Source: an uncultured Spirochaetaceae bacterium (GTDB lineage Bacteria > Myxococcota_A > UBA9160 > UBA4427). From it: a stretch of DNA of 64,000 nucleotides. The notes below the pieces were generated by a model. That model saw only the letters and a program-made list of their open reading frames with translations. It was not told the DNA's origin and searched no databases. How positions within the stretch are numbered: the stretch's first letter is position 1; each line of letters opens with the position of its first letter. This document shows, in pieces, positions 10,461-19,692 of this stretch. A program made the translations under genes and the position numbers. The stretch lies in the NCBI GenBank assembly GCA_964435795.1, contig CAYTAT010000030.1:876-64875 (forward strand). The letters run 5' to 3'.

Positions 10461-12059
10461 CTACATCCGGAAGACGCCGAAAGGCGTCTTTTCGATTGGG
10501 GCGTTGAGTGCAGCGCTGATTCCGAGTCCGAGGACGCGCCTGGTATCCCGTGGATCGATGATGCCATCGTCCCAGAGTCTCGCAGTCGCGTAGTAGGGAT
10601 GGCCCTGGTGTTCATAGCGCGTGCGGATTTCCTGCATGAAATCATCCCGCGCATTTTCGGGCCATGCCTCGTCCCGCGCGGCCATCGAATCGCCCCGGAC
10701 GGTCGCGAGGACGTGGGCCGCCTGCTCCCCGCCCATGACGCTGATTCGGGCGTTGGGCCACATGAAGAGCAGCCTGGCCCCGTATGCGCGTCCGCACATC
10801 GCATAATTTCCGGCGCCGAAGGAGCCGCCGATGATCACGGTGAATTTCGGAACTCGCGCGCAGGCGACGGCCGTTACCATCTTGGCGCCATCCTTGGCGA
10901 TGCCGCCTCGCTCGTATTTCTTCCCGACCATGAAGCCGGTGATATTCTGCAGGAAGACGAGGGGGATCTTTCGTTGGCAACACAATTCAACGAAATGGGC
11001 CCCCTTGAGGGCGGATTCGCCGAAGAGAACTCCGTTATTGGCCACGATCCCGACCGGGTAGCCGTGAATATGTGCAAAGCCCGTGACCAGGGTCTCCGCA
11101 TAGCGGCGCTTGAATTCGTCGAATTCACTGGCGTCGACGATTCGTGCGATCACTTCGCGCACGTCGTAGGGTTTGCGAGTATCCCGGGGAATCACGCCCA
11201 GCAACTCCTCGGGATCGTATCGGGGCTCCTGGCTGGGAAGCGTCTGCAACTCGACCGATTTGCGTGCCGGGAGGTGGGCGATCGCATTGCGTGCCAGCGA
11301 GAGGGCGTGGGGATCATCGACTGCGAGATGATCGACTACGCCACTGATTCTCGAATGGACATCCGCCCCCCCCAACTCCTCAGGGCTGACCTCTTCTCCC
11401 GTGGCGGCCTTGACGAGGGGCGGCCCTCCCAGGAAGATCGTCCCCTGCTCGCGGACGATGATGCTCTCATCCGACATGGCGGGTACGTAGGCCCCGCCGG
11501 CCGTGCAGGAGCCCATCACGACGGCAATCTGGGGAATTCCCGCCGCACTCATCGTCGCCTGGTTGTAGAAGATGCGACCGAAGTGCTCCCGATCCGGGAA
11601 GACGTCGTCCTGGTTGGGGAGATTTGCGCCCCCGGAATCCACCAGATAGATGCAGGGGAGTCGGTTCTCGGCGGCGATCTCCTGGGCGCGCAGATGTTTC
11701 TTGACCGTGATGGGGTAGTAGGTTCCGCCCTTCACGGTTGCGTCGTTGCAGACGACCATGCACTCGCGCCCCGAGACGCGCCCGATTCCGGTGATGATGC
11801 CGGCGGCCGGCACCTGCTCTTCGTAGACTTCCTCCGCGGCCAGGGCCGAAAGCTCCAGGAATGGGGAGCCCGGATCCAGGAGTTGGCGAACGCGTTCCCT
11901 CGGCAGCAGTTTCCCGCGCCCGAGATGACGGTCGACGGCGCGTTGGCCTCCGCCCTCGGCGATGCTCGCGTGTTTGGCTCGCAGATTCTCGACCAGGCGT
12001 CGCATCTGCTCGGAATTTTCCCTGAAGTCCTCGGCTTCGGGGTCGATCAGGGTCTGCAA
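10461..12059 (-). CDS. liuB: 3-methylcrotonyl-CoA carboxylase beta subunit (carboxyltransferase)
   Basis: [69 protein letters not shown] and C-terminal FGVFRM. TTG 12059 has GAGGAG 6 nt upstream; alternative GTG at 12122. Confidence 0.9.
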
Positions 12060-12145
12060 GATATTCTCCTCGGATTCGAGATATTGACCGATGAGATCCG
12101 GGAAGTCGAGGCCGGAAGGCACCTCACTTATCTACCCCATCCAGA

Positions 12146-12727
12146 TCAAGGGGAGGGCGGAGGGTATTGCGCCAATATCTCATCGACGGCCTTCCGAATC
12201 AGGACCTCGCGTTGCTCGGGGGTCGTCGTATGCTGGACTCGACTCTGTCCCGTTCCACGCCAGATCAATGCCTCTTCTTGTGGGTCGATAAAATCGATGA
12301 CGAGGGTGCCCTCATCGTATTGGCGCAAGCTTGTCGTTTCGTAGAAGCCGCCGCGCCCTTCCCAGGGCCGATCGCCGTAGCCATGACCATAGCTGTAGCG
12401 ATCCAATCGGAATCTCTTCTCGATGTTCATGTACTGGGCGACGAAAAAATCGGCCTCGGCCCTGGGCACTTCGCGGATTCCCCGAGCCAGGAGAATTTCC
12501 TCGACCGCAACCCGAACCCGATTCGCCTGGAGCGAACTATCCGCGAGAGAGGTCTCCTTCCGGCGGGGCGAATCCCGTAGCCAGGCGTATCTTTCGAGAC
12601 CCGAAAAATCGAAGGAGGGATCGTAGTCGTTGTTGACTCCGATGCTCGAACAGGAGAAGAGCATCCCCCCGAGAAGCAGAGCGAGAGCGACCGCCCTTAG
12701 TCTGGATCCACGCTTCAGGAATGACAT
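12146..12727 (-). CDS. DUF4136-domain lipoprotein
   Basis: Signal with LFSC lipobox; DYDPSFDFSGLERYAW and YDEGTLVIDFID...LIWRGTG...YPP pattern. Confidence 0.85.
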   Translation of the reverse strand: MSFLKRGSRLRAVALALLLGGMLFSCSSIGVNNDYDPSFDFSGLERYAWLRDSPRRKETSLADSSLQANRVRVAVEEILLARGIREVPRAEADFFVAQYMNIEKRFRLDRYSYGHGYGDRPWEGRGGFYETTSLRQYDEGTLVIDFIDPQEEALIWRGTGQSRVQHTTTPEQREVLIRKAVDEILAQYPPPSP

Positions 12728-12895
12728 CTTTTCGTTTCCCGTTGGCGGCCCATCTATGGCATGAAGTGGGCGGGCCAATTTTCCATGGCGACAGTGGGCA
12801 TACTATTTCAGGCCGACCCGTTTTCGAAGAGATCGATGCGTTGATCGGGGAATTCGGGCGCTTTCAGCGGCGAATGCGGAGGAAGAGGAGAAGCA

Positions 12896-14308
12896 TCATT
12901 GCCCGCTATGGGGTGGAGGCCCCTCTTCGGGTGCTCGAATTCCATGCTTCTGGGCTCTGTAGCGGAGCTTCTGCCTCGTCGTTCCGAGGTTGCGTGCCGC
13001 CGCAGTCATATTGAACTGGCTGCGCTCCAATGCGACCTGGATGATATGCAATTCCATTTCATCCAGGGACATGCTTCCGTTCAGGGGAAGCTGAATCGTA
13101 TCGCCCCGGGGACTCGGCGCCGCCTGTGGGGTCTCGGATGTGAGTTGAAGCCAGCGGATCGGGAACTCCGTTCCCTCGGAGAAGAGGACACAGCGCTCGA
13201 TCACATTCCGCAACTCGCGCACGTTGCCGGGCCAGGAATATTCCTTGAGAGCAGTCCAGACATCCCTTGAAATCGTGCGCACCGACTTTCCGGCGATGAT
13301 GTTGAATTCCTCGATGACCAACGGAACGAGCTCTTCGAGATCCTCCAGCCGTTCGCGCAAGGTCGGCAGTACGAGTTCGAATACCGAGAGCCGATGGTAG
13401 AGATCGGCACGGAAATCCCCTGCCTCGACGCGGCCGGAAAGATTCCGATTGCTGGCCGCGATGAGCTGGACATCGACGGAGGTCTCCTTGTCGGAGCCGA
13501 GAGGCCGAACCCGCTGGTCTTCGATCACCTTCAGGAGCTTTGACTGCAGGTCGATCTCCATCTCCGAAATTTCGTCCAGGAATAGAGTGCCTCCATCCGC
13601 CTGCTGGATCAGGCCCCGGCGTTTCTGGTTGGCCCCGGTAAAGGCTCCGGCTTCATGGCCAAAGAGTTCCGATTCCAGCAACTCTCTCGGAAGGGCGGCA
13701 CAATTGATTTCGACCAGGGGCCCCCCGGCGCGTCTTCCGCTGTTGTGGATGATCCGGGCGACCAGGCCCTTGCCGGTTCCCGTTTCGCCTCCGATGATCA
13801 GGGCGCTGAGAGGGATCGTGGTCAATTTCTCCAGGACTTCGCGTACTTCCTTCGCGGCGTTGCTGGTTCCCAGGAAGCTCGAGATCGGGAAGGCGCGGCT
13901 CTGGGAATCGGAATGCTCGTTCAGCCTGCGTTGCGCCTGGGCGCTGCGCGCCGCACTCGCGACGACGAGGTCGAGGCGTTTCTGGTCGCAGGGTTTTTCG
14001 AGGAAGTCGTAGGCCCCGATGCGGAGGGCTCGAACGGAGTCGGCCACGGTTCCATAACCGGTGAGGAAGAGCCACTCTCCCGACCGCTGCTCACTCGTGA
14101 TCTCTTCCAGCAGATCGAGGGCATTGCCATCGGGCAGGTTCATGTCGGAGACGACCACCAGGGGTGAAATCTTCCCGTCGAGAAGGGCCCCCCTCGCATC
14201 GGCCAGATTGGCACAATGCGTCACTTCCCATCCGTTGCGCTCGAAATGGCGCAGCATTTCCCGGGCGAGCAACTCTTCGTCTTCGATGAGAAGCAGGGTA
14301 TCAGCCAT
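12896..14308 (-). CDS. Sigma54-dependent response regulator (REC-AAA+-Fis HTH, NtrC/AtoC family)
   Basis: REC LLIEDE...VSDMNLPDG...FLEKP; Walker A GETGTGK; ESELFGHEAGAFTGA; LFLDEI; WPGNVRELRN; C-terminal HTH. Start overlaps the kinase stop codon. Confidence 0.95.
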   Translation of the reverse strand: MADTLLLIEDEELLAREMLRHFERNGWEVTHCANLADARGALLDGKISPLVVVSDMNLPDGNALDLLEEITSEQRSGEWLFLTGYGTVADSVRALRIGAYDFLEKPCDQKRLDLVVASAARSAQAQRRLNEHSDSQSRAFPISSFLGTSNAAKEVREVLEKLTTIPLSALIIGGETGTGKGLVARIIHNSGRRAGGPLVEINCAALPRELLESELFGHEAGAFTGANQKRRGLIQQADGGTLFLDEISEMEIDLQSKLLKVIEDQRVRPLGSDKETSVDVQLIAASNRNLSGRVEAGDFRADLYHRLSVFELVLPTLRERLEDLEELVPLVIEEFNIIAGKSVRTISRDVWTALKEYSWPGNVRELRNVIERCVLFSEGTEFPIRWLQLTSETPQAAPSPRGDTIQLPLNGSMSLDEMELHIIQVALERSQFNMTAAARNLGTTRQKLRYRAQKHGIRAPEEGPPPHSGQ

Positions 14309-15344
14309 GATGCTGGGACGAAGGTAGCAGCAAGACCACCCTGGCGCCGGAAGGCCTGCCCTCCTCTCCGAGATTCGACAATCGGATTTCACCCCCGACA
14401 TCGCGGATCAAACGTCGGGCCATGGTGAGTCCCAGACAGGCCTTCTTCACCTCGGATGGGTAGTGGAGACGAATCCCCTGGGAGAGAATCTCCTCGGGAA
14501 AACCCGGACCGTCGTCCTCGAGCGTGATTTCGGTTCCATCGTCAGCCCGCCGGATCGTCAGCTCGATTTCCCCCTTTTCGTCCCCGATGGCATGCACCGA
14601 ATTGAGCAGGATATTTCTCACGACCAGCCGCAACCTCTGCTTGGGGGAGCGGACGAGGATTCCCTCCTGAACGTGAGTCCGGAGTTGGATCGTGGGGGGG
14701 ATCTGGAGGCGAATCAGTTGTAGCAATTCCTTCGTCCACGAATTCGGATCGAATTCACTTTCGGCTTCGAGATCCCGGCGCGTCGATTCGATGACGTTGC
14801 CAAGACGCCGTCCGAGACGCGCAATCTCCGAAATGATTTCCTCGACCCTTTCCGAAAATTCCACATCCGTCGACTCGGAAGCGATATTCGAGAGGCTCAT
14901 TTGCATGCCCGCCAGGGAGTTCCTTATGTCATGGCTGATCGACGTCGCGAATTCGCAGGCGGCTGCCATGCGTTCGATTTCGGCCAGGGCCTGCTGCCGC
15001 AGGAGCTCTGGACTATTCGCCGGGGTCGGGGCGATACTCATCGCGGTCGAGATCTGAGCGGATGTCCCGTCGCCGGTTTCCGTGGTCCGCTCCGAACCCA
15101 CCCGGGCAAATGCCCGCAGCACGAGGGGGATCAGGAGTAGCAGGGAAGGGATTCCCAGGGCGGCGTCGCGGGGGAATTCGAATCCGGAGCCGGATCCTCC
15201 GGCCAGGAAGAGCAAGAAGATGGCGAGCGGGGTTGTTGCACCCACGACGACCGGATGTCGGAGGCGATCGGACAGGGTCGTCGTGGGCGATCCTCGCTGC
15301 CGAGTCTCCGAACCCGCTTCCTCTTGCGGACCCTGATCCTTCAC
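14301..15344 (-). CDS. Membrane sensor histidine kinase (two TM segments, short loop, atypical G2 box)
   Basis: H-box SHDIRNSL, N-box NILLNSVHAI, G1 DDGPGF, G2 KACLGL; translationally coupled to the response regulator. Confidence 0.85.
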   Translation of the reverse strand: MKDQGPQEEAGSETRQRGSPTTTLSDRLRHPVVVGATTPLAIFLLFLAGGSGSGFEFPRDAALGIPSLLLLIPLVLRAFARVGSERTTETGDGTSAQISTAMSIAPTPANSPELLRQQALAEIERMAAACEFATSISHDIRNSLAGMQMSLSNIASESTDVEFSERVEEIISEIARLGRRLGNVIESTRRDLEAESEFDPNSWTKELLQLIRLQIPPTIQLRTHVQEGILVRSPKQRLRLVVRNILLNSVHAIGDEKGEIELTIRRADDGTEITLEDDGPGFPEEILSQGIRLHYPSEVKKACLGLTMARRLIRDVGGEIRLSNLGEEGRPSGARVVLLLPSSQHHG

Positions 15345-15417
15345 GATTTCAGCATAGCGTTCTCGCGATTCGTAGTCTGGGGTTTTTCATCCCCTCGCAA
15401 GACCGACACTTCCCCGC

Positions 15418-16554
15418 CTAGGCGGGTTCTATCGGGCCGCCCGCTATTCTCTGCGCGGGAGTCGCTTCGTCGCGCGTGAGCGATACCCCCCTCTGCAAGT
15501 CGGGTTCGCATCGCTTGCGGCTGAGAATCAGCATTGGAAGTCCAAATTCCTGCTGTTTGCGTCGAATCGTAAAGGCTCGCTTGCGGACCCATTGGATACA
15601 GCGCTGCGAGCCCAGTTCCGCCTGGATTTCGGGTCCGCAGGGCGGGGTTCCATTGCGACTCACCAATTCGAGATAGGCTTGCAGGAACTCCTCTTCATGG
15701 GACGTGAATTCGGGCTCGGTGCTGTAGGCCTTGAGCCATTTGGAGGCCTGGCCCGCCAGGATCAATGGCAGGCGTGAACGCTTGATCTGCTTCCAGCGAA
15801 TTCCGTGGACGACGACGTGGATCGCCCCCGAATCCATATTTTCCATGCGCCGGGATAGATCCGCGGCCGCCGGAGGTGGGGAGGGGCTGGTCTCCAGCAC
15901 CTCGAGGTAGGTGCGCACGAGTCGGGTTTCCTTGGGGCTGAACCGATTCTCGATCAGGCTGCTATGCAGGTCTTCGAGCAGCAGATCGTGGATGTCGATC
16001 GCGTCGCGATCCCGTCGGTAGTTGATGACCGGCGGGGGACCCGCATTGGGCGTTCTCATCGAGCCGATTTCCCGCATCGGGAATTCGACCGACTGCCGCT
16101 CGCTCGTCGCATCGCCGGGGTATGCGATCAGCAGGCTCTCCAGCGTAAACGTGTAGTCCCCGAGGCGGTACGCGAGATCGCCCTTGAAACCGGCCGGGGG
16201 TTCGATGACGGCGATGCGGAGTTTGCCGAGGGAGACCTTGCCACCGGGTTGGACGAGTTCGTCGCGATTGCCCGGTATCGATGTATCCCAGGAATCGGGA
16301 CCCGCCGGCATGATCCTGACGGCGCCCGCGGAGGCTCGAAAGCTCTCGAGCTTGGGAAAACTCCGCAGCTGGCGATGGGTTTCGAGGGTGAAGGCGAGTT
16401 CCAGCCCCCGATCTTGAAGTACCCGCGCGTAGTCTCCGACGGAATTCTCGCTGGGGTGAATGATAAGTGCCTGGCGGCTCATCGGACATGCGATGAGATA
16501 ACTGCGTTGGCCTTTTTCGGTGTCCCTGAAATCGTAGAAAATTGTCATCTTCAT
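15418..16554 (-). CDS. Degenerate MBL-fold (persulfide dioxygenase/glyoxalase II-like) domain fused to two LexA-like winged-helix repeats
   Basis: N-terminus SYLIAC...ALIIHP...GLELAFTLETH matches ETHE1-like proteins but lacks HxHxDH. Two repeats with 78-aa period at the C-terminus. RBS spacing favours ATG 16548. Confidence 0.7.
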   Translation of the reverse strand: MKMTIFYDFRDTEKGQRSYLIACPMSRQALIIHPSENSVGDYARVLQDRGLELAFTLETHRQLRSFPKLESFRASAGAVRIMPAGPDSWDTSIPGNRDELVQPGGKVSLGKLRIAVIEPPAGFKGDLAYRLGDYTFTLESLLIAYPGDATSERQSVEFPMREIGSMRTPNAGPPPVINYRRDRDAIDIHDLLLEDLHSSLIENRFSPKETRLVRTYLEVLETSPSPPPAAADLSRRMENMDSGAIHVVVHGIRWKQIKRSRLPLILAGQASKWLKAYSTEPEFTSHEEEFLQAYLELVSRNGTPPCGPEIQAELGSQRCIQWVRKRAFTIRRKQQEFGLPMLILSRKRCEPDLQRGVSLTRDEATPAQRIAGGPIEPA

Positions 16555-16635
16555 TCTCCTCGATCAGTTCGTTTCCTCCGCCAAACCATTGGAAATCGTG
16601 CCGGCGGAGGTTTTCAGCGATAATAAGTTGGACAC

Positions 16636-16652
16636 TGCAGATCTCGTGCCAG
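16636..16652 (-). promoter_or_regulatory. Sigma54 (-24/-12) promoter
   Basis: Minus strand CTGGCACGAGATCTGCA: GG-N10-GC with a perfect TGGCACG -24 box, about 80 nt upstream of the 16554 gene and correctly oriented. Confidence 0.75.
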
Positions 16653-16674
16653 TGCGAAGGAAAAATGAATTCTC

Positions 16675-16703
16675 TTGGAATTTCGCAAGGTTGCGAATTC
16701 CAA
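16675..16703. promoter_or_regulatory. Near-perfect inverted repeat, candidate operator
   Basis: TTGGAATTTCGCAA-GG-TTGCGAATTCCAA; the arms differ by one extra T. Confidence 0.55.
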
Positions 16704-16725
16704 GGCTCTTTCTTCCGGAGCAATT

Positions 16726-16781
16726 TGGTCGATATTTGTCAGTGGGTGGCCGATTTGCGCCACCATGGCTGATTTGCACCG
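16726..16781. promoter_or_regulatory. Candidate enhancer (UAS) array for a sigma54 activator
   Basis: Three related 16-mers about 20 bp apart: TGGTCGATATTTGTCA, TGGCCGATTTGCGCCA, TGGCTGATTTGCACCG. The middle one lies in the palindrome GGTGGC-N8-GCCACC. Confidence 0.55.
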
Positions 16782-17361
16782 CCCCCCCAGAGGCCCGGAT
16801 GAAACGATGCGCCGGGACCCCCTGGGTAGGTTCTCGATACAGCGGCCGTCTTTCTTGATGAGACCGATGGGAATACCCATCATCCCCGGGGAGTTCTGCC
16901 GAGAACTCTGTGATCCTTCCCGGGTGGTTCGAAAATTGGGTCTCTCCCGGGCGCTCGTTGGCCACAAATCGCTTGGATCGCATTCGAGTAGCGCGCTGGA
17001 ATTGCGCTGCTGCAGGGTCCGATCGATTCGGATCGGGGCAGATGCCGTCGGCCTGTCCCGGCGTTGCGTCAACTGGCTGTTCCAGCGGGCAAAGCCGTAT
17101 AGTTCCGGGCTTTCACCGATCGCGGCGACGATGCGGACCCATTCTTCGCACCCCCTCCGAGTGATACCCCGTGGACTTTCGCGCCGTTCGCGCGGGCGAT
17201 GGGCGGCCGGGAGCGGGGCGATCGCATCGGTCGAGCCGGGACGAGGGCTGAACGCCGTCGCCCGGCTGAAGGCGGCCACGGGGTGGGAGACTCCGCGGCT
17301 GGACTTGCATCCGATACGTGCCGGGGAGTGTGCGATTGTCTCGAGGGAAAGGGGAGGCAGA

Positions 17362-18462
17362 ATGGGGGCATTGCTGATCGGAGGTACCGGGCCCACCGGC
17401 CCACCAATCGTCAGGGGATTGCTGGAGCGCGGGCACGAAGTCGCAATCCTGCATACCGGTCGTCATGAGACGTCCGAGATTCCCGACGAGGTGGAACACA
17501 TCCATGCCGACCCCTGGGATGAAGCCGCGCTTCGGGTGGTTCTCGAGGGTCGCGATTTCGATCTGCTGATCGCGGGCTATGGCCGCCTGAGGGCGATCGC
17601 CGAAATTGCGAAGGGCCGCTGCTCGCATTTCATTTCGCTCGGTGGGGGCCCCGCATATCTCGGCTACATGAATTCCGCGGCGCTCTCGCCCGTCGGTATG
17701 AGCGTGCCGATTCGCGAGGATGCCCCCCGCGTCGAGCGCGAAACCGACGATGAAAAGGGCTACCGGATCGCACGGACCGAGGACGCGGTTTTTAGCCACC
17801 ATCCCCGGGCCGCGCATTTCCGCTACCCGATCGTCTACGGGCCGCGTCAGCCTCTGCCCAGGGAGTGGAGCATCGTGCGCCGAATCCTCGATGGGCGTCG
17901 CCGGATCATCCTGCCCGACGGCGGTCTCACGCTCAGCCATTTCGGCTACGCGGACAACCTCGCCCACGCGGTTCTGCTGGCGGTCGACCAACCCGAGGCC
18001 TGCGCGGGGCGGATCTATAATTGCGGAGACGAGGATGTCCTCAGCTTGAGGCAGGTGGTGGAACTGATCGCCGAGGCCCTCGATCACCCCCTGGAGATCG
18101 TCTCCATCCCCTACGCGCTCGCCCCGCCGACCCGCCCCCTCGTCATGCAGCCGTGGACGACCCATCGCGTCTACGATCTGGGTCGCCTGCGCGCCGATCT
18201 CGGTTATCGCGATCGCGTCCCGGCCCGCGAAGCCATCCAGCGCACGGCTCGTTGGCTGGTGGAAAATCCTCCTGAAAAGGGGGGGCCGGAGGAGATCGTG
18301 CTCCAGGATCCCTTCGATTACGCGGCCGAGGATCGGCTCTTGTCGGCCTGGCAATCCGCCGTGGAGTCGATGCCCGAGATCGAATTCAAGTCCGAGCCCG
18401 GCTATACGCTCTCCTACAGCGGACCCGGAGGCCGGGTACCCTCGTCCCCGGGCTTCGAATGA
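17362..18462 (+). CDS. NAD-dependent epimerase/dehydratase family protein
   Basis: Starts MGALLIGGTGPTG (GGAGG RBS); RYPIVYGP, YADNLAHAV, GRIYNCGD. The ORF-track extension to 16675 is spurious. Confidence 0.85.
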   Translation: MGALLIGGTGPTGPPIVRGLLERGHEVAILHTGRHETSEIPDEVEHIHADPWDEAALRVVLEGRDFDLLIAGYGRLRAIAEIAKGRCSHFISLGGGPAYLGYMNSAALSPVGMSVPIREDAPRVERETDDEKGYRIARTEDAVFSHHPRAAHFRYPIVYGPRQPLPREWSIVRRILDGRRRIILPDGGLTLSHFGYADNLAHAVLLAVDQPEACAGRIYNCGDEDVLSLRQVVELIAEALDHPLEIVSIPYALAPPTRPLVMQPWTTHRVYDLGRLRADLGYRDRVPAREAIQRTARWLVENPPEKGGPEEIVLQDPFDYAAEDRLLSAWQSAVESMPEIEFKSEPGYTLSYSGPGGRVPSSPGFE

Positions 18463-18504
18463 AGGTCCCGGGGGCCATCCAGAAACTGAATCCAGGGAGT
18501 CACG

Positions 18505-19692
18505 ATGTCGGGAGCCATGCAGGGAATTCGGGTGGTCGACCTCAGTATCGCGCTATCGGGGCCCTGGGCGGTGGGGATCCTGGCCGACCAGGGGGCTGCG
18601 GTGATCAAGGTGGAGGCCCCGGGCATCGGGGATATCGGGCGCTGGGTGGGGGTGGCCCGGGGTGGTATCAGCGCCATGGCCCAGATGGTGAATCGGGGCA
18701 AGCGTTCCCTGGCCGTCGATCTCCGCTTCGAAGAGGGCAGGGATATCGTGCGTCGCCTGGCCGTCGGGGCGGATGTCTTCGTGCAGAATTTTCGCCCCGG
18801 CGTGATCGAGCGCCTGGGGCTCGCGCACTCCCTGCTGCGCGAGGAAAATCCGGATCTCATCTACGTATCCATCAGCGGTTTCGGAAGCGAGGGTCCGTAT
18901 CGTGACAAGAGCGCCTACGATCCCGTCGTCCAGGCCTACGGAGGCCTCGCGGCCACCCAGGCCGATCTCGAGACCGACGAACCGCGCCTGATCGCCCAGG
19001 TCGCCGCGGATAAGATCACGGCACTGACCGCGAGCCAGGCCATCGCGGCCGCCCTCTTTGCCCGGGAACGCGGTGCTGGAGGCCAGCATCTCGAGATTCC
19101 GATGCTGGATGCCGTGGTGAATTTCGTCTGGACGGACGCCGCGGGCAATGAGGTGATTCGAGATTCGGATGGCAGTCAGCCCTCGAGTTTCTCTCGCAGC
19201 CAACGACTCTGGCGCTTTCGGGATGGCTGGGGGATCGCGGCTCCCGTCTCCGATCAGGACTTCGTGGGCATCTGTCGGGCTCTCGATGTCGAGGGCTGGG
19301 ACGATCCGGCCGTGGCTACCATTGTTGCGCGGCGTCAGAATCCCGCAGCCATGGCGGCGATCCTCGAAAGAATTCATGCCGCAGCGGCTTCGATGGGGAT
19401 CGCCGAAGCCATGCAGAGGCTCGAAGCCGAGAAGGCCCCCTGCGGAGTGGTGCTCGGGCCAGAAGCCCTCGCATCCGACCCCCATGTCGAGGCCGTGGGT
19501 CTGCTCGAGGACTCCGAGCATCCCGTTCTGGGGCGCATTCGGCAGCCCCGCCCGGCCGTTCAATTCGAAAGAACGCCGAGCCGACTCGGCGCTCCGGCCC
19601 CCACCCTGGGCGAGCAGACCGATGAGATTCTCCGGGAGTTGGGTCTCGGGCAAGAGATTTCGCGTCTGCGCGCGGAGGGCGTCGTGGCTTGA
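18505..19692 (+). CDS. Family III CoA-transferase (CaiB/BaiF)
   Basis: GIRVVDLS, GAAVIKVE, NRGKRSLAVDL, DVFVQNFRPG, ISGFG, AYDPVVQA and APTLGEQTDEIL motifs. Confidence 0.93.
   Translation: MSGAMQGIRVVDLSIALSGPWAVGILADQGAAVIKVEAPGIGDIGRWVGVARGGISAMAQMVNRGKRSLAVDLRFEEGRDIVRRLAVGADVFVQNFRPGVIERLGLAHSLLREENPDLIYVSISGFGSEGPYRDKSAYDPVVQAYGGLAATQADLETDEPRLIAQVAADKITALTASQAIAAALFARERGAGGQHLEIPMLDAVVNFVWTDAAGNEVIRDSDGSQPSSFSRSQRLWRFRDGWGIAAPVSDQDFVGICRALDVEGWDDPAVATIVARRQNPAAMAAILERIHAAAASMGIAEAMQRLEAEKAPCGVVLGPEALASDPHVEAVGLLEDSEHPVLGRIRQPRPAVQFERTPSRLGAPAPTLGEQTDEILRELGLGQEISRLRAEGVVA

Follow-up and report, generated by a model that had tools for sequence, protein, structure and literature searches.

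What does a protein do that appears to combine a dead enzyme domain with two helix-turn-helix (HTH) repeats, and whose gene stands at the head of a two-component operon? This question is raised by the open reading frame (ORF) 15418-16554(-) in a 64-kb stretch of contig CAYTAT010000030.1 (64,000 nucleotides in all; hereafter the window, with G000 denoting the genome to which it belongs). An initial annotation had described the product, here termed X, as an inactivated persulfide dioxygenase (PDO) domain fused to tandem LexA-like winged helices, an architecture for which it knew of no precedent. The ORF is indeed present and translates to 378 amino acids, and neither Pfam, nor the PDB, nor a literature search covering titles and abstract openings yielded a described protein of this design. 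Judged from sequence comparisons and structure models, the evidence leans, if modestly, towards X being a DNA-binding output or feedback regulator of a sigma-54 circuit that carries a non-catalytic scaffold domain. X would be the founding member, as seen here, of a lineage-restricted regulator family. HTH regulators with an enzyme-derived domain under sigma-54 control are of a kind already known; what is new is the combination of a PDO remnant with HTH units, the tandem LexA-shaped module and the kinase-only regulon.

Relatives of X are few and closely alike in design. A word-indexed search returned 27 proteins including X itself, with 40-53% identity, lengths of 260-405 amino acids and the same architecture throughout. 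Those that are named carry the title 'hypothetical protein' without exception, and three come from Myxococcota metagenome-assembled genomes. In 1.84 billion representative sequences, searched exhaustively with HMMER, 46 proteins passed E<=1e-3; of these, 17 also passed E<=1e-10 and 14 passed E<=1e-30, the weaker matches covering only the metallo-beta-lactamase (MBL) part. Among the shorter relatives there was a single 187-residue protein, probably a fragment, on a 984-bp contig, and longer relatives were not found, which is weak evidence. The C-terminal module (C-module), which holds the HTH repeats, occurs in eight of 401 sampled genomes of the phylum, G000 included. All eight belong to the window's GTDB family and always hold a single copy: within that family it is found in 7 of 25 other genomes (genera g1 4/4, g3 2/2 and g4 1/1), and outside it in 0 of 375. 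In G000, tblastn detected no paralogue of X.

The two ends of the protein have evolved differently. Among pairs with a defined dS, dN/dS (Nei-Gojobori) is 0.03-0.26 in the C-module, 0.10-0.51 in the N-terminal domain (N-domain) and 0.31-0.99 in the linker between them, so that the homologues are under purifying selection at both ends. Between clades, the N-domain retains 31-51% identity where the C-module keeps 64-84%, and mean consensus frequency is 0.81 over residues 188-348 compared with 0.52 in the N-domain. X itself is 36-46% identical between the window and related loci, the adjacent regulator 64-75% and a nearby carboxyltransferase 76-84%. In the same-genus genomes G134, G144, G234 and G329, the N-domain and linker of X were also seen to evolve far faster than the neighbouring genes.

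The best-conserved part of X is therefore the natural place to look for its function. The repeats begin exactly where they had been placed, at F205 of FSPKET (position 15942) and F283 of FTSHEE (15708), 78 residues apart. BLASTP finds only a weak match between them (E 4e-4 across 26 residues), while profile-profile comparison with hhalign gives a probability of 93.5% and an E-value of 2.2e-7 over 66 columns, and on this ground the internal duplication is regarded as real. Each repeat forms three helices in both models, that of full-length X (AlphaFold, built with 24 homologues, mean pLDDT 80.4) and that of the C-module alone (pLDDT 85.7). Neither model has a beta-hairpin after helix 3 in either repeat according to DSSP. 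The repeats thus model as three-helix HTH units, as expected, but the models do not support the epithet 'winged'.

In each repeat, helix 3 is the best-conserved element and is basic (values in Table 1), while helices 1 and 2 are acidic or neutral. The helix at residues 320-336 has a charge of +5 to +7 in all 24 members of the alignment. A conserved, basic third helix is the usual signature of a recognition helix, and on the strength of alignment and models X most likely reads DNA through its third helices, mainly through 320-336 and possibly also through 242-258. This same basicity, together with that of the segment following helix 3 of repeat 2, could instead point to an RNA-binding or general nucleoid-associated protein rather than a sequence-specific transcription factor, and Foldseek does return tandem winged-helix proteins of RNA-binding or architectural function (SelB 5lzb_z; ScpB 6juv and 3w6j). 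Such a role appears highly unlikely: these rows have probabilities of only 0.16-0.20 at a root-mean-square deviation (rmsd) of 8-12 A, the C-module as a whole is weakly basic, with a median charge of +2, and so tightly regulated a gene, served by a sigma-54 circuit of its own, is more in keeping with a specific regulator than with a bulk nucleoid protein.

Two HTH units on one polypeptide are familiar from the AraC-family proteins MarA, SoxS and Rob, from the Pax paired domain and from Myb R2R3. Like them, X could read adjacent stretches of DNA without dimerising. There is no sequence relation to any of these proteins, and the comparison with Pax5 (1k78_A) is unconvincing (Foldseek probability 0.15, rmsd 14.4 A); in X, unlike in these, one unit is a genuine duplicate of the other, and a conserved linker of 26 residues connects them. 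If the tandem module does read DNA as a monomer, it would show a new way of recognising asymmetric operators, one that builds on a LexA-shaped unit. An HMM profile of the C-module gave one noise match among PDB sequences (E 2.3), and a search of the ESM Atlas with residues 185-352 gave no usable match.

How far does the proposed resemblance to LexA go? For the C-module model, Foldseek ranks the LexA-DNA complex 3jso_A first (probability 0.99, rmsd 1.4 A, 52 columns, 23% identity), followed by other LexA structures (1lea, 1jhh and 3k2z), with E-values of only 0.45 for the first and 0.45-0.84 for the LexA rows as a group. VIA-align superposes 61 residues of repeat 2 across LexA 2-65 (Z 6.7, rmsd 2.4 A, 23% identity). 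However, LexA is tied there with sigma-A region 3 (Z 7.0), MntR/DtxR (MntR 6.6), OmpR-type and GerE domains; all of these matches are HTH or winged-helix domains, many of them from DNA-binding proteins, at Z 5.5-7.0. The Pfam family LexA_DNA_bind (PF01726) is detected in 5 of 16 members at 15.0-20.4 bits, below the gathering cut-off of 23.7 bits; the match falls in repeat 1 in L011, L012 and L015 and in repeat 2 in L013 and L016. A scan of the whole of G000 with the same family finds canonical LexA at contig C28 only.

Like the LexA N-terminal domain, the repeats have three helices of similar lengths and a G-x-P-P-S/T-x-x-E-I turn between helices 1 and 2. In contrast to LexA, X lacks the S24 peptidase and dimerisation domain (no Peptidase_S24 by Pfam; the repeats are C-terminal and followed by a disordered tail only) as well as the cleavage site, carries two tandem copies on one chain, has in repeat 2 a helix 3 that exceeds its LexA counterpart in length and by far in basicity, and is modelled without the beta-hairpin wing. 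A profile-profile proof of homology was sought with a profile of LexA N-domains taken from 21 genomes of the window's order and proved uninformative, since the X repeats score under the negative control. That control (LexA N-domain against the sigma-54 core-binding domain) reached 36.1%, above both repeats, with shallow profiles (Neff ~2). Because the Pfam matches are sub-threshold, the VIA-align scores tied and the hhalign scores below the control, the repeats are best described as HTH units with a real but weak likeness to LexA in shape and motif, as far as sequence and models can tell; this part of the initial annotation stands, while membership of the LexA family is not established.

The second line of evidence comes from the genes that surround X. 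A scan of species-representative genomes found 16 loci with an X homologue (L001-L016). The order X, kinase, activator is kept in 14 of them by tblastn, with the gene for a DUF4136 protein, the third gene 3' of X on the same strand, coming next in 12, and a sigma-54 promoter precedes X in the window and in all 15 related loci that could be scored (L013, with only 19 nt upstream, was left out). The claim that X heads a sigma-54 two-component operon is supported by these counts. In the window, the activator has REC, Sigma54_activat (8.3e-63), AAA lid and HTH_8 domains, and GAFTGA is present in its translation; its ORF is listed to 14401, but 14308 is the probable start. No terminator-like site was found between X and the kinase gene, and a search of 15200-17400 with Rfam gave two chance-level rows only (E ~0.6). 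The gene for sigma-54 itself, rpoN, is located on contig C17 of G000 (E 7.2e-60) and is present in 20 of the 21 genomes searched.

Matched with a relaxed pattern, the sigma-54 element occurs once in each scorable locus, 60-200 nt upstream of X and on its strand, with the consensus gtTGGCACG-N4-cTGCAAT. Elsewhere in the related loci the same pattern has no match in 174,909 bases, counting both strands. From the -12 GC at 16637/16638, transcription of X is predicted to start near 16625, and no sigma-70-like promoters were found in 12000-17400. Farther upstream, some 75-130 bp from the -24 element, there are near-palindromes of 14 bp with the form GGCTCAAATGAGCC. With a relaxed pattern, at least two are found in 10 of the 16 upstream regions, one in five and none in L006, where the region contains Ns; they are spaced by 30-31 bp in most loci and by 19-21 bp in the window. 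From their symmetry, helical phasing and position, these palindromes would be bound by dimers of the Fis-type HTH of the NtrC-type activator. On the same grounds we infer that this regulator, encoded two genes downstream of X, drives sigma-54 transcription of X from its sites upstream.

L014 and L016 form the most divergent branch. In both, a convergent M20 peptidase gene follows X in place of the kinase and activator genes. The genome of L016 has an activator orthologue (60% identical; next best 39%) about 870 kb from X, without a kinase match. There, X retains the sigma-54 promoter and one palindrome, and the locus of the activator orthologue has neither motif. Promoter and palindrome thus stay with X and not with the activator, and X therefore behaves as a conserved target of the activator.

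The same promoter design marks very few other genes. In G000 there are 40 strict sigma-54-like sites, and only that of X has a palindrome 40-260 bp upstream. Among the 562 sites found with the relaxed pattern, at least two palindromes 60-200 bp upstream occur at exactly three, namely those of X and of two further genes on contigs C7 and C5; three more sites (C18, C19 and C42) have one palindrome, possibly by chance. The C7 and C5 promoters consist of two or three phased GGC-N8-GCC palindromes followed by TGGCATggtgtTTGCG or TGGCCCgatagTTGCG, and both precede histidine kinase genes (Table 1). The C7 kinase has hydrophobic N-terminal stretches, as judged by eye. Kinases of this type are encoded directly upstream of X in L001, L002, L003 and L007, and on the same contig as X in two same-genus genomes. 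The kinase beside X has no BLASTP match to the C7 kinase at E<=1e-3, so these two are not recent duplicates. Going by their shared promoter design, the X operon and the C7 and C5 kinases look like a small multi-kinase sigma-54 regulon. Since its three units are X with its kinase and response regulator, plus two kinases, X is the sole product outside the two-component proteins and is therefore most likely the DNA-binding output, or a feedback element, of this circuit.

Between the enhancer-like sites and the -24 element lies an AT-rich element, for which sequence makes a bending site or an operator a candidate role. Its core, CTTGGAATTCGCAA-CC-TTGCGAAATTCCAAG, is a 31-nt near-perfect inverted repeat with one indel (16674-16704(-)), and GAATT or GAAAT motifs were noticed at the same position in other loci. 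A block, ATTCC[AC]AGAGAATT, is common to the promoters of X and the C7 kinase and lies exactly 16 nt upstream of TGGCA in both. Across 17 promoters, the AT fraction of the 40 nt before -24 is 0.57-0.65. By eye, the AT-rich block contains no good match to WATCAANNNNTTR, the consensus for integration host factor (IHF). A more elaborate role for X, which we regard as a long shot, would make it a new class of single-chain, two-headed DNA reader that binds the GAAAT/GAATT block just upstream of -24 in its own and the kinase promoters. There it would gate open-complex formation by sigma-54 polymerase or enhancer looping in place of IHF, with the pseudoenzyme domain linking this activity either to oligomerisation or to a metabolite, be it a thiol or another sulfur compound. 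Were this true, three kinases, one activator and X would make up a self-contained sigma-54 feedback oscillator or switch.

Transcription of the locus may have left some trace in public data. The stretch 15300-16800 is found in 20 sequencing runs from 15 studies, among them six RNA libraries from four studies (marine, seawater and hydrothermal-vent). Contigs from four RNA runs, one per study, were compared with 12800-17400. X is covered in all four, and the contigs stop at 16609, 16616, 16597 and 16594, where no loose ends were seen; one contig (X8, 2,164 nt) spans 14457-16609 and runs from X into the kinase gene. The region 16650-17265 is covered by none of the four runs, although contigs are unable to prove absence. 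These ends fall just downstream of the predicted start near 16625 and agree with it, which is a weak hint in its favour.

Several observations count against a DNA-binding regulator in such a circuit. Taken alone, the sigma-54 motif is not significant in the window, where 0.23 matches are expected and 19 of 100 shuffles give one. The palindromes could be operators of X itself rather than of the activator. RNA contigs reveal neither strand nor true 5' ends, and RNA libraries can contain DNA. As for the module itself, the X of the window has no Pfam HTH match at E<=1 and the LexA_DNA_bind matches of its relatives are all sub-threshold; hhalign against the LexA N-domain profile gives 12.3% for repeat 2 and 1.1% for repeat 1; and the structural Z-scores do not exceed 7.0, where VIA-align treats values below 8 as perhaps just a common arrangement. 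Finally, an exposed recognition helix would not be expected to be as hydrophobic as helix 3 of repeat 1 (IHVLVHSIRW), which may instead be a packing or protein-contact surface. Repeat 1 is for this reason the less certain DNA reader, while the corresponding helix of repeat 2 is a typical basic recognition helix; the pseudo-dimeric DNA-binding unit of the initial annotation is a conjecture.

This last point bears on the idea that X is a protein-binding feedback modulator, an anti-activator or co-factor whose HTH-shaped repeats contact the activator, a kinase or sigma-54 RNA polymerase instead of DNA. PspA, NifL and HrpV act on their activators in a comparable manner, and X is co-transcribed with, or activated by, the regulator that it would modulate. 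A helix 3 that is hydrophobic and nearly invariant on all faces suits a protein interface, the inter-repeat linker is likewise highly conserved (consensus frequency 0.88), and among the top VIA-align rows are domains of sigma factors whose function depends on contacts with other proteins. We nevertheless consider this unlikely, if deserving of serious attention, in view of the charge of helix 320-336, which is typical of nucleic-acid binding and shared by all members, and of the DNA-bound form of LexA as best Foldseek match. The one specific lead also failed. Mimicry of the sigma-54 core-binding domain had been suggested by weak Pfam Sigma54_CBD matches in 3 of 16 members (E 0.087-0.13) and a VIA-align Z of 5.8 to 2k9m, but hhalign of the C-module against a 13-sequence profile of that domain gave only 15.6% (6.1% for repeat 1 alone, 0.2% for repeat 2), and the candidate was rejected as generic helical similarity.

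What, then, is the role of the N-domain? Its kinship with ETHE1/Blh-type MBL proteins, which the initial annotation had recognised, is upheld by both sequence and fold. With phmmer, residues 5-147 match PDO-type MBL chains among the PDB sequences (3tp9 at E 5.4e-6, then 9rhq, 3r2u, 4ysb, 2gcu and 8zbd), the PDO-rhodanese fusion 5ve3 and human ETHE1 (4chl, E 0.14). The ten best Foldseek matches of the X model are all PDO or PDO-like, led by 8zbd (E 2.5e-10) and including 3tp9, 3r2u, 5ve3-5 and 4ysb; 2gcu ranks 12th and 4chl 16th. The low-rmsd Foldseek rows align 133-160 columns, and for the PDO chains of about 235 residues the TM-score on the target is 0.45-0.48, so about the first 60% of the MBL fold is present in X. 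The C-terminal third of the fold is replaced by a low-confidence linker in both the model and the MAFFT alignment, where the chain of the X family departs from the MBL fold directly after the FTxxSLLI strand. MAFFT also places the helix at residues 188-201 under the helix of genuine MBLs that precedes LPDxT, and by this alignment it is possibly a surviving MBL helix, the one that comes after the GD motif.

The domain is also dead in the sense proposed, with ETHRQLRS in place of ETHxHADH, and its truncation adds to that claim. HMMER pairs ETHRQLRS of X with ETHIHADF, PPAGFKG with TPGHTPE and FTLESLLI with FTGDALLI. The HxHxDH, TPGH and GD positions, which we take to be the iron ligands of ETHE1-type enzymes, were compared in a MAFFT alignment of seven X-family members with seven genuine MBLs. 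HxHxDH and the TPGH histidine are missing in all seven members, and the GD aspartate is kept in three (P0014, P0023 and P0038), the X of the window having a glutamate (E139). Relatives have LLTKTEPE, FLTDTSDE, LETTYGEA and similar sequences in place of HxHxDH, where only T59 is conserved. PDOs, among them ETHE1, bacterial PDO, Blh, CstB and PRF, share with X the N-terminal SYLI...TR.A..I.P and ETH signatures. X differs from them in lacking HxHxDH and the TPGH histidine, in having mostly lost the GD aspartate, in a fold that stops after about 147 residues, in the absence of a rhodanese domain and in the fusion to HTH repeats.

With the iron ligands and the last third of the fold lost, the N-domain is taken to be non-catalytic. 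That X might still be an enzyme, with altered chemistry on an MBL scaffold, would draw on its MBL-fold similarity and on the alignment of E139 with the ligand aspartate. Such an enzyme is scarcely credible when all three PDO iron-ligand positions are lost or unconserved across the family, HxHxDH is gone in all seven aligned members, the fold is truncated, and it is the HTH module, not the MBL remnant, that is best conserved.

A dead enzyme domain may also serve as a sensor. The initial annotation inferred a pseudo-enzyme sensor joined to a single-chain pseudo-dimeric DNA-binding unit; spelled out, the domain would sense glutathione, persulfide or a related thiol metabolite and allosterically control the DNA-binding unit, which would make X a one-component regulator. 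MocR/GabR exemplify the recruitment of enzyme folds as effector domains, the N-domain derives from enzymes that use glutathione persulfide, and it is under purifying selection and confidently modelled. However, it evolves fast compared with the C-module, it has lost the third of the fold by which the active-site cleft would be completed, and its invariant residues in the 24-sequence alignment (I5, L20, R27, A29, P34, L53, T59, G110 and Y129) are core positions also kept in genuine MBLs and form no new pocket. In that alignment there is no cysteine among the invariant or nearly invariant columns. A thiol switch of the CstR/SqrR/BigR type, of which we take a conserved sensing cysteine pair to be the mark, is excluded for this reason. 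These three features (fast evolution, invariants confined to the MBL core, no conserved cysteine) argue for a scaffold rather than a small-molecule sensor, and control by a metabolite is improbable. Under the preferred interpretation, the N-domain descends from a PDO-type MBL enzyme, has lost its iron ligands and last third, and presumably serves as a folded, non-catalytic scaffold for oligomerisation or partner contact.

Table 1. Features of the X locus and of the promoters that resemble its own. Positions refer to the window unless a contig or locus is named; residues are those of X.
Feature	Position	Strand	Basis and remarks
Coding sequence of X	15418..16554	(-)	378 amino acids; ORF list and translation; 26 homologues besides X, 260-405 amino acids
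N-domain, residues 1-147: truncated MBL half-fold without metal site, PDO-type	16114..16554	(-)	phmmer against PDB, Foldseek, lost ligand motifs, dN/dS 0.10-0.51
Variable linker, residues 148-187	15994..16113	(-)	pLDDT <50 at 150-169; mean consensus frequency 0.38; dN/dS 0.31-0.99
Conserved helix, residues 188-201 (EDLHSSL)	15952..15993	(-)	Model helix 188-201, pLDDT ~91
HTH repeat 1, residues 205-268; helices 207-222, 230-237, 242-258	15751..15942	(-)	Models, hhalign; helix 3 consensus 0.91, median charge +2
HTH repeat 2, residues 283-346; helices 285-301, 307-314, 320-336	15517..15708	(-)	Models, LexA 3jso_A; helix 3 consensus 0.94, median charge +6
Disordered C-terminal tail, residues 349-378	15421..15510	(-)	pLDDT <50; consensus frequency 0.38
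Sigma-54 type promoter TGGCACgagatCTGCA (-24 GG, -12 GC)	16636..16651	(-)	The window's only match to TGGCAY-N6-TGCW
AT-rich promoter-proximal element: near-palindrome CTTGGAATTCGCAA-CC-TTGCGAAATTCCAAG overlapping block ATTCCAAGAGAATT	16668..16704	(-)	Sequence
Enhancer-like near-palindromes (upstream activator sites): GGTGCAAATCAGCC 16767-16780; GGCGCAAATCGGCC 16748-16761; GACAAATATCGACC 16727-16740	16727..16780	(-)	Array of three
Histidine kinase	14301..15344	(-)	Pfam HisKA, HATPase_c; hydrophobic N-terminal stretches; no Pfam sensor domain
NtrC-type sigma-54 activator	12896..14308	(-)	REC, AAA+ with GAFTGA, Fis-type HTH; Pfam and NCBIfam
C7:65571 promoter	G000 C7:65441-66860 = L020:942-2361		Upstream of histidine kinase L020:1150-2361 (HisKA, HATPase_c by Pfam)
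C5:127425 promoter	G000 C5:127347-127536		Upstream of a paralogue of the C7 kinase (histidine kinase, 52% identical)

Sigma-54 cascades offer two points of comparison for the locus as a whole. In Myxococcus, a kinase/NtrC-type activator pair, mrpAB, drives the separate transcription factor gene mrpC, and FisR-type regulators place PDO genes under sigma-54 control. As in mrpAB-mrpC, the gene for a putative DNA-binding protein with a sigma-54 promoter and upstream activator sites lies beside kinase and activator genes; as under FisR, a PDO-derived gene is under sigma-54. MrpC, however, is an unrelated CRP-family protein, and the gene for X mostly comes first in one operon with those for the kinase and activator. 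Unlike in the FisR-controlled PDO genes, the PDO part of X is dead. The other units of G000 with this promoter design are kinases.

The locus is of interest in two respects. X is a plain example of an enzyme fold that has lost its catalysis and been joined to a module that putatively reads DNA. It also belongs to a compact and testable sigma-54 circuit made up of a putative output regulator, three kinases and a single activator, whose promoters can all be recognised by sequence. The hosts are uncultured marine and hydrothermal-vent bacteria, of whose regulation almost nothing is known. The general impact is moderate because the family is narrow, being confined to one GTDB family.

Some further observations concern the wider neighbourhood and its hosts. 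The surroundings of X form a stable chromosomal block with no sign of a mobile island. In many loci, synteny extends downstream to the DUF4136 gene and a carboxyltransferase subunit gene (window 10461-12778(-)), the latter being the carboxyltransferase compared above, and upstream to two divergently oriented ORFs (17395-19692(+)) that are 64-85% identical. By their titles, eight of the 16 loci come from Myxococcota or Myxococcales, two from Deltaproteobacteria, one from Proteobacteria, two from a 'bacterium' and three from 'uncultured Spirochaetaceae'. The latter three are L013, L014 and L015. L013 and L015 share the X-kinase-regulator order of the loci labelled Myxococcota, and the arrangement in L014 (M20 peptidase, HTH_3-cupin protein, EF-G) is like that of L016, a Myxococcota chromosome; these three bins may have been assigned to the wrong taxon. 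G000 also encodes fuller PDO/GloB-like MBL proteins at C31:19495-20214 and C33:12162-12821 (tblastn with PDO-like queries, E down to 7e-29), and these are possible relatives of the ancestor of the N-domain.

Lastly, the ends of the gene deserve mention. Family scans say little about X as a whole: Pfam finds no family at E<=1, Lactamase_B, HTH and Peptidase_S24 included, and NCBIfam lists GloB alone, whose 12.8 bits fall far short of the 200.8-bit cut-off. At the 5' end, the second ATG, at 16548, is the likely start codon rather than the first, because it is preceded at 7 nt by GAGGAG and the aligned position is where homologues begin with MI[LF]. At the 3' end, most homologues have tails that finish in ...P[IT]A or ...P[LF]S (VPIA, LPIA, FPTA), and that of the X of the window finishes in EPA; this is a possible short linear motif or degradation tag. 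The stop codon TAG is overlapped by a GC-rich inverted repeat, CCCGCC-TA-GGCGGG (15413-15426(-)). It is not followed by a T-run and one RNA contig reads across it; it might tune the ratio of X to the kinase.

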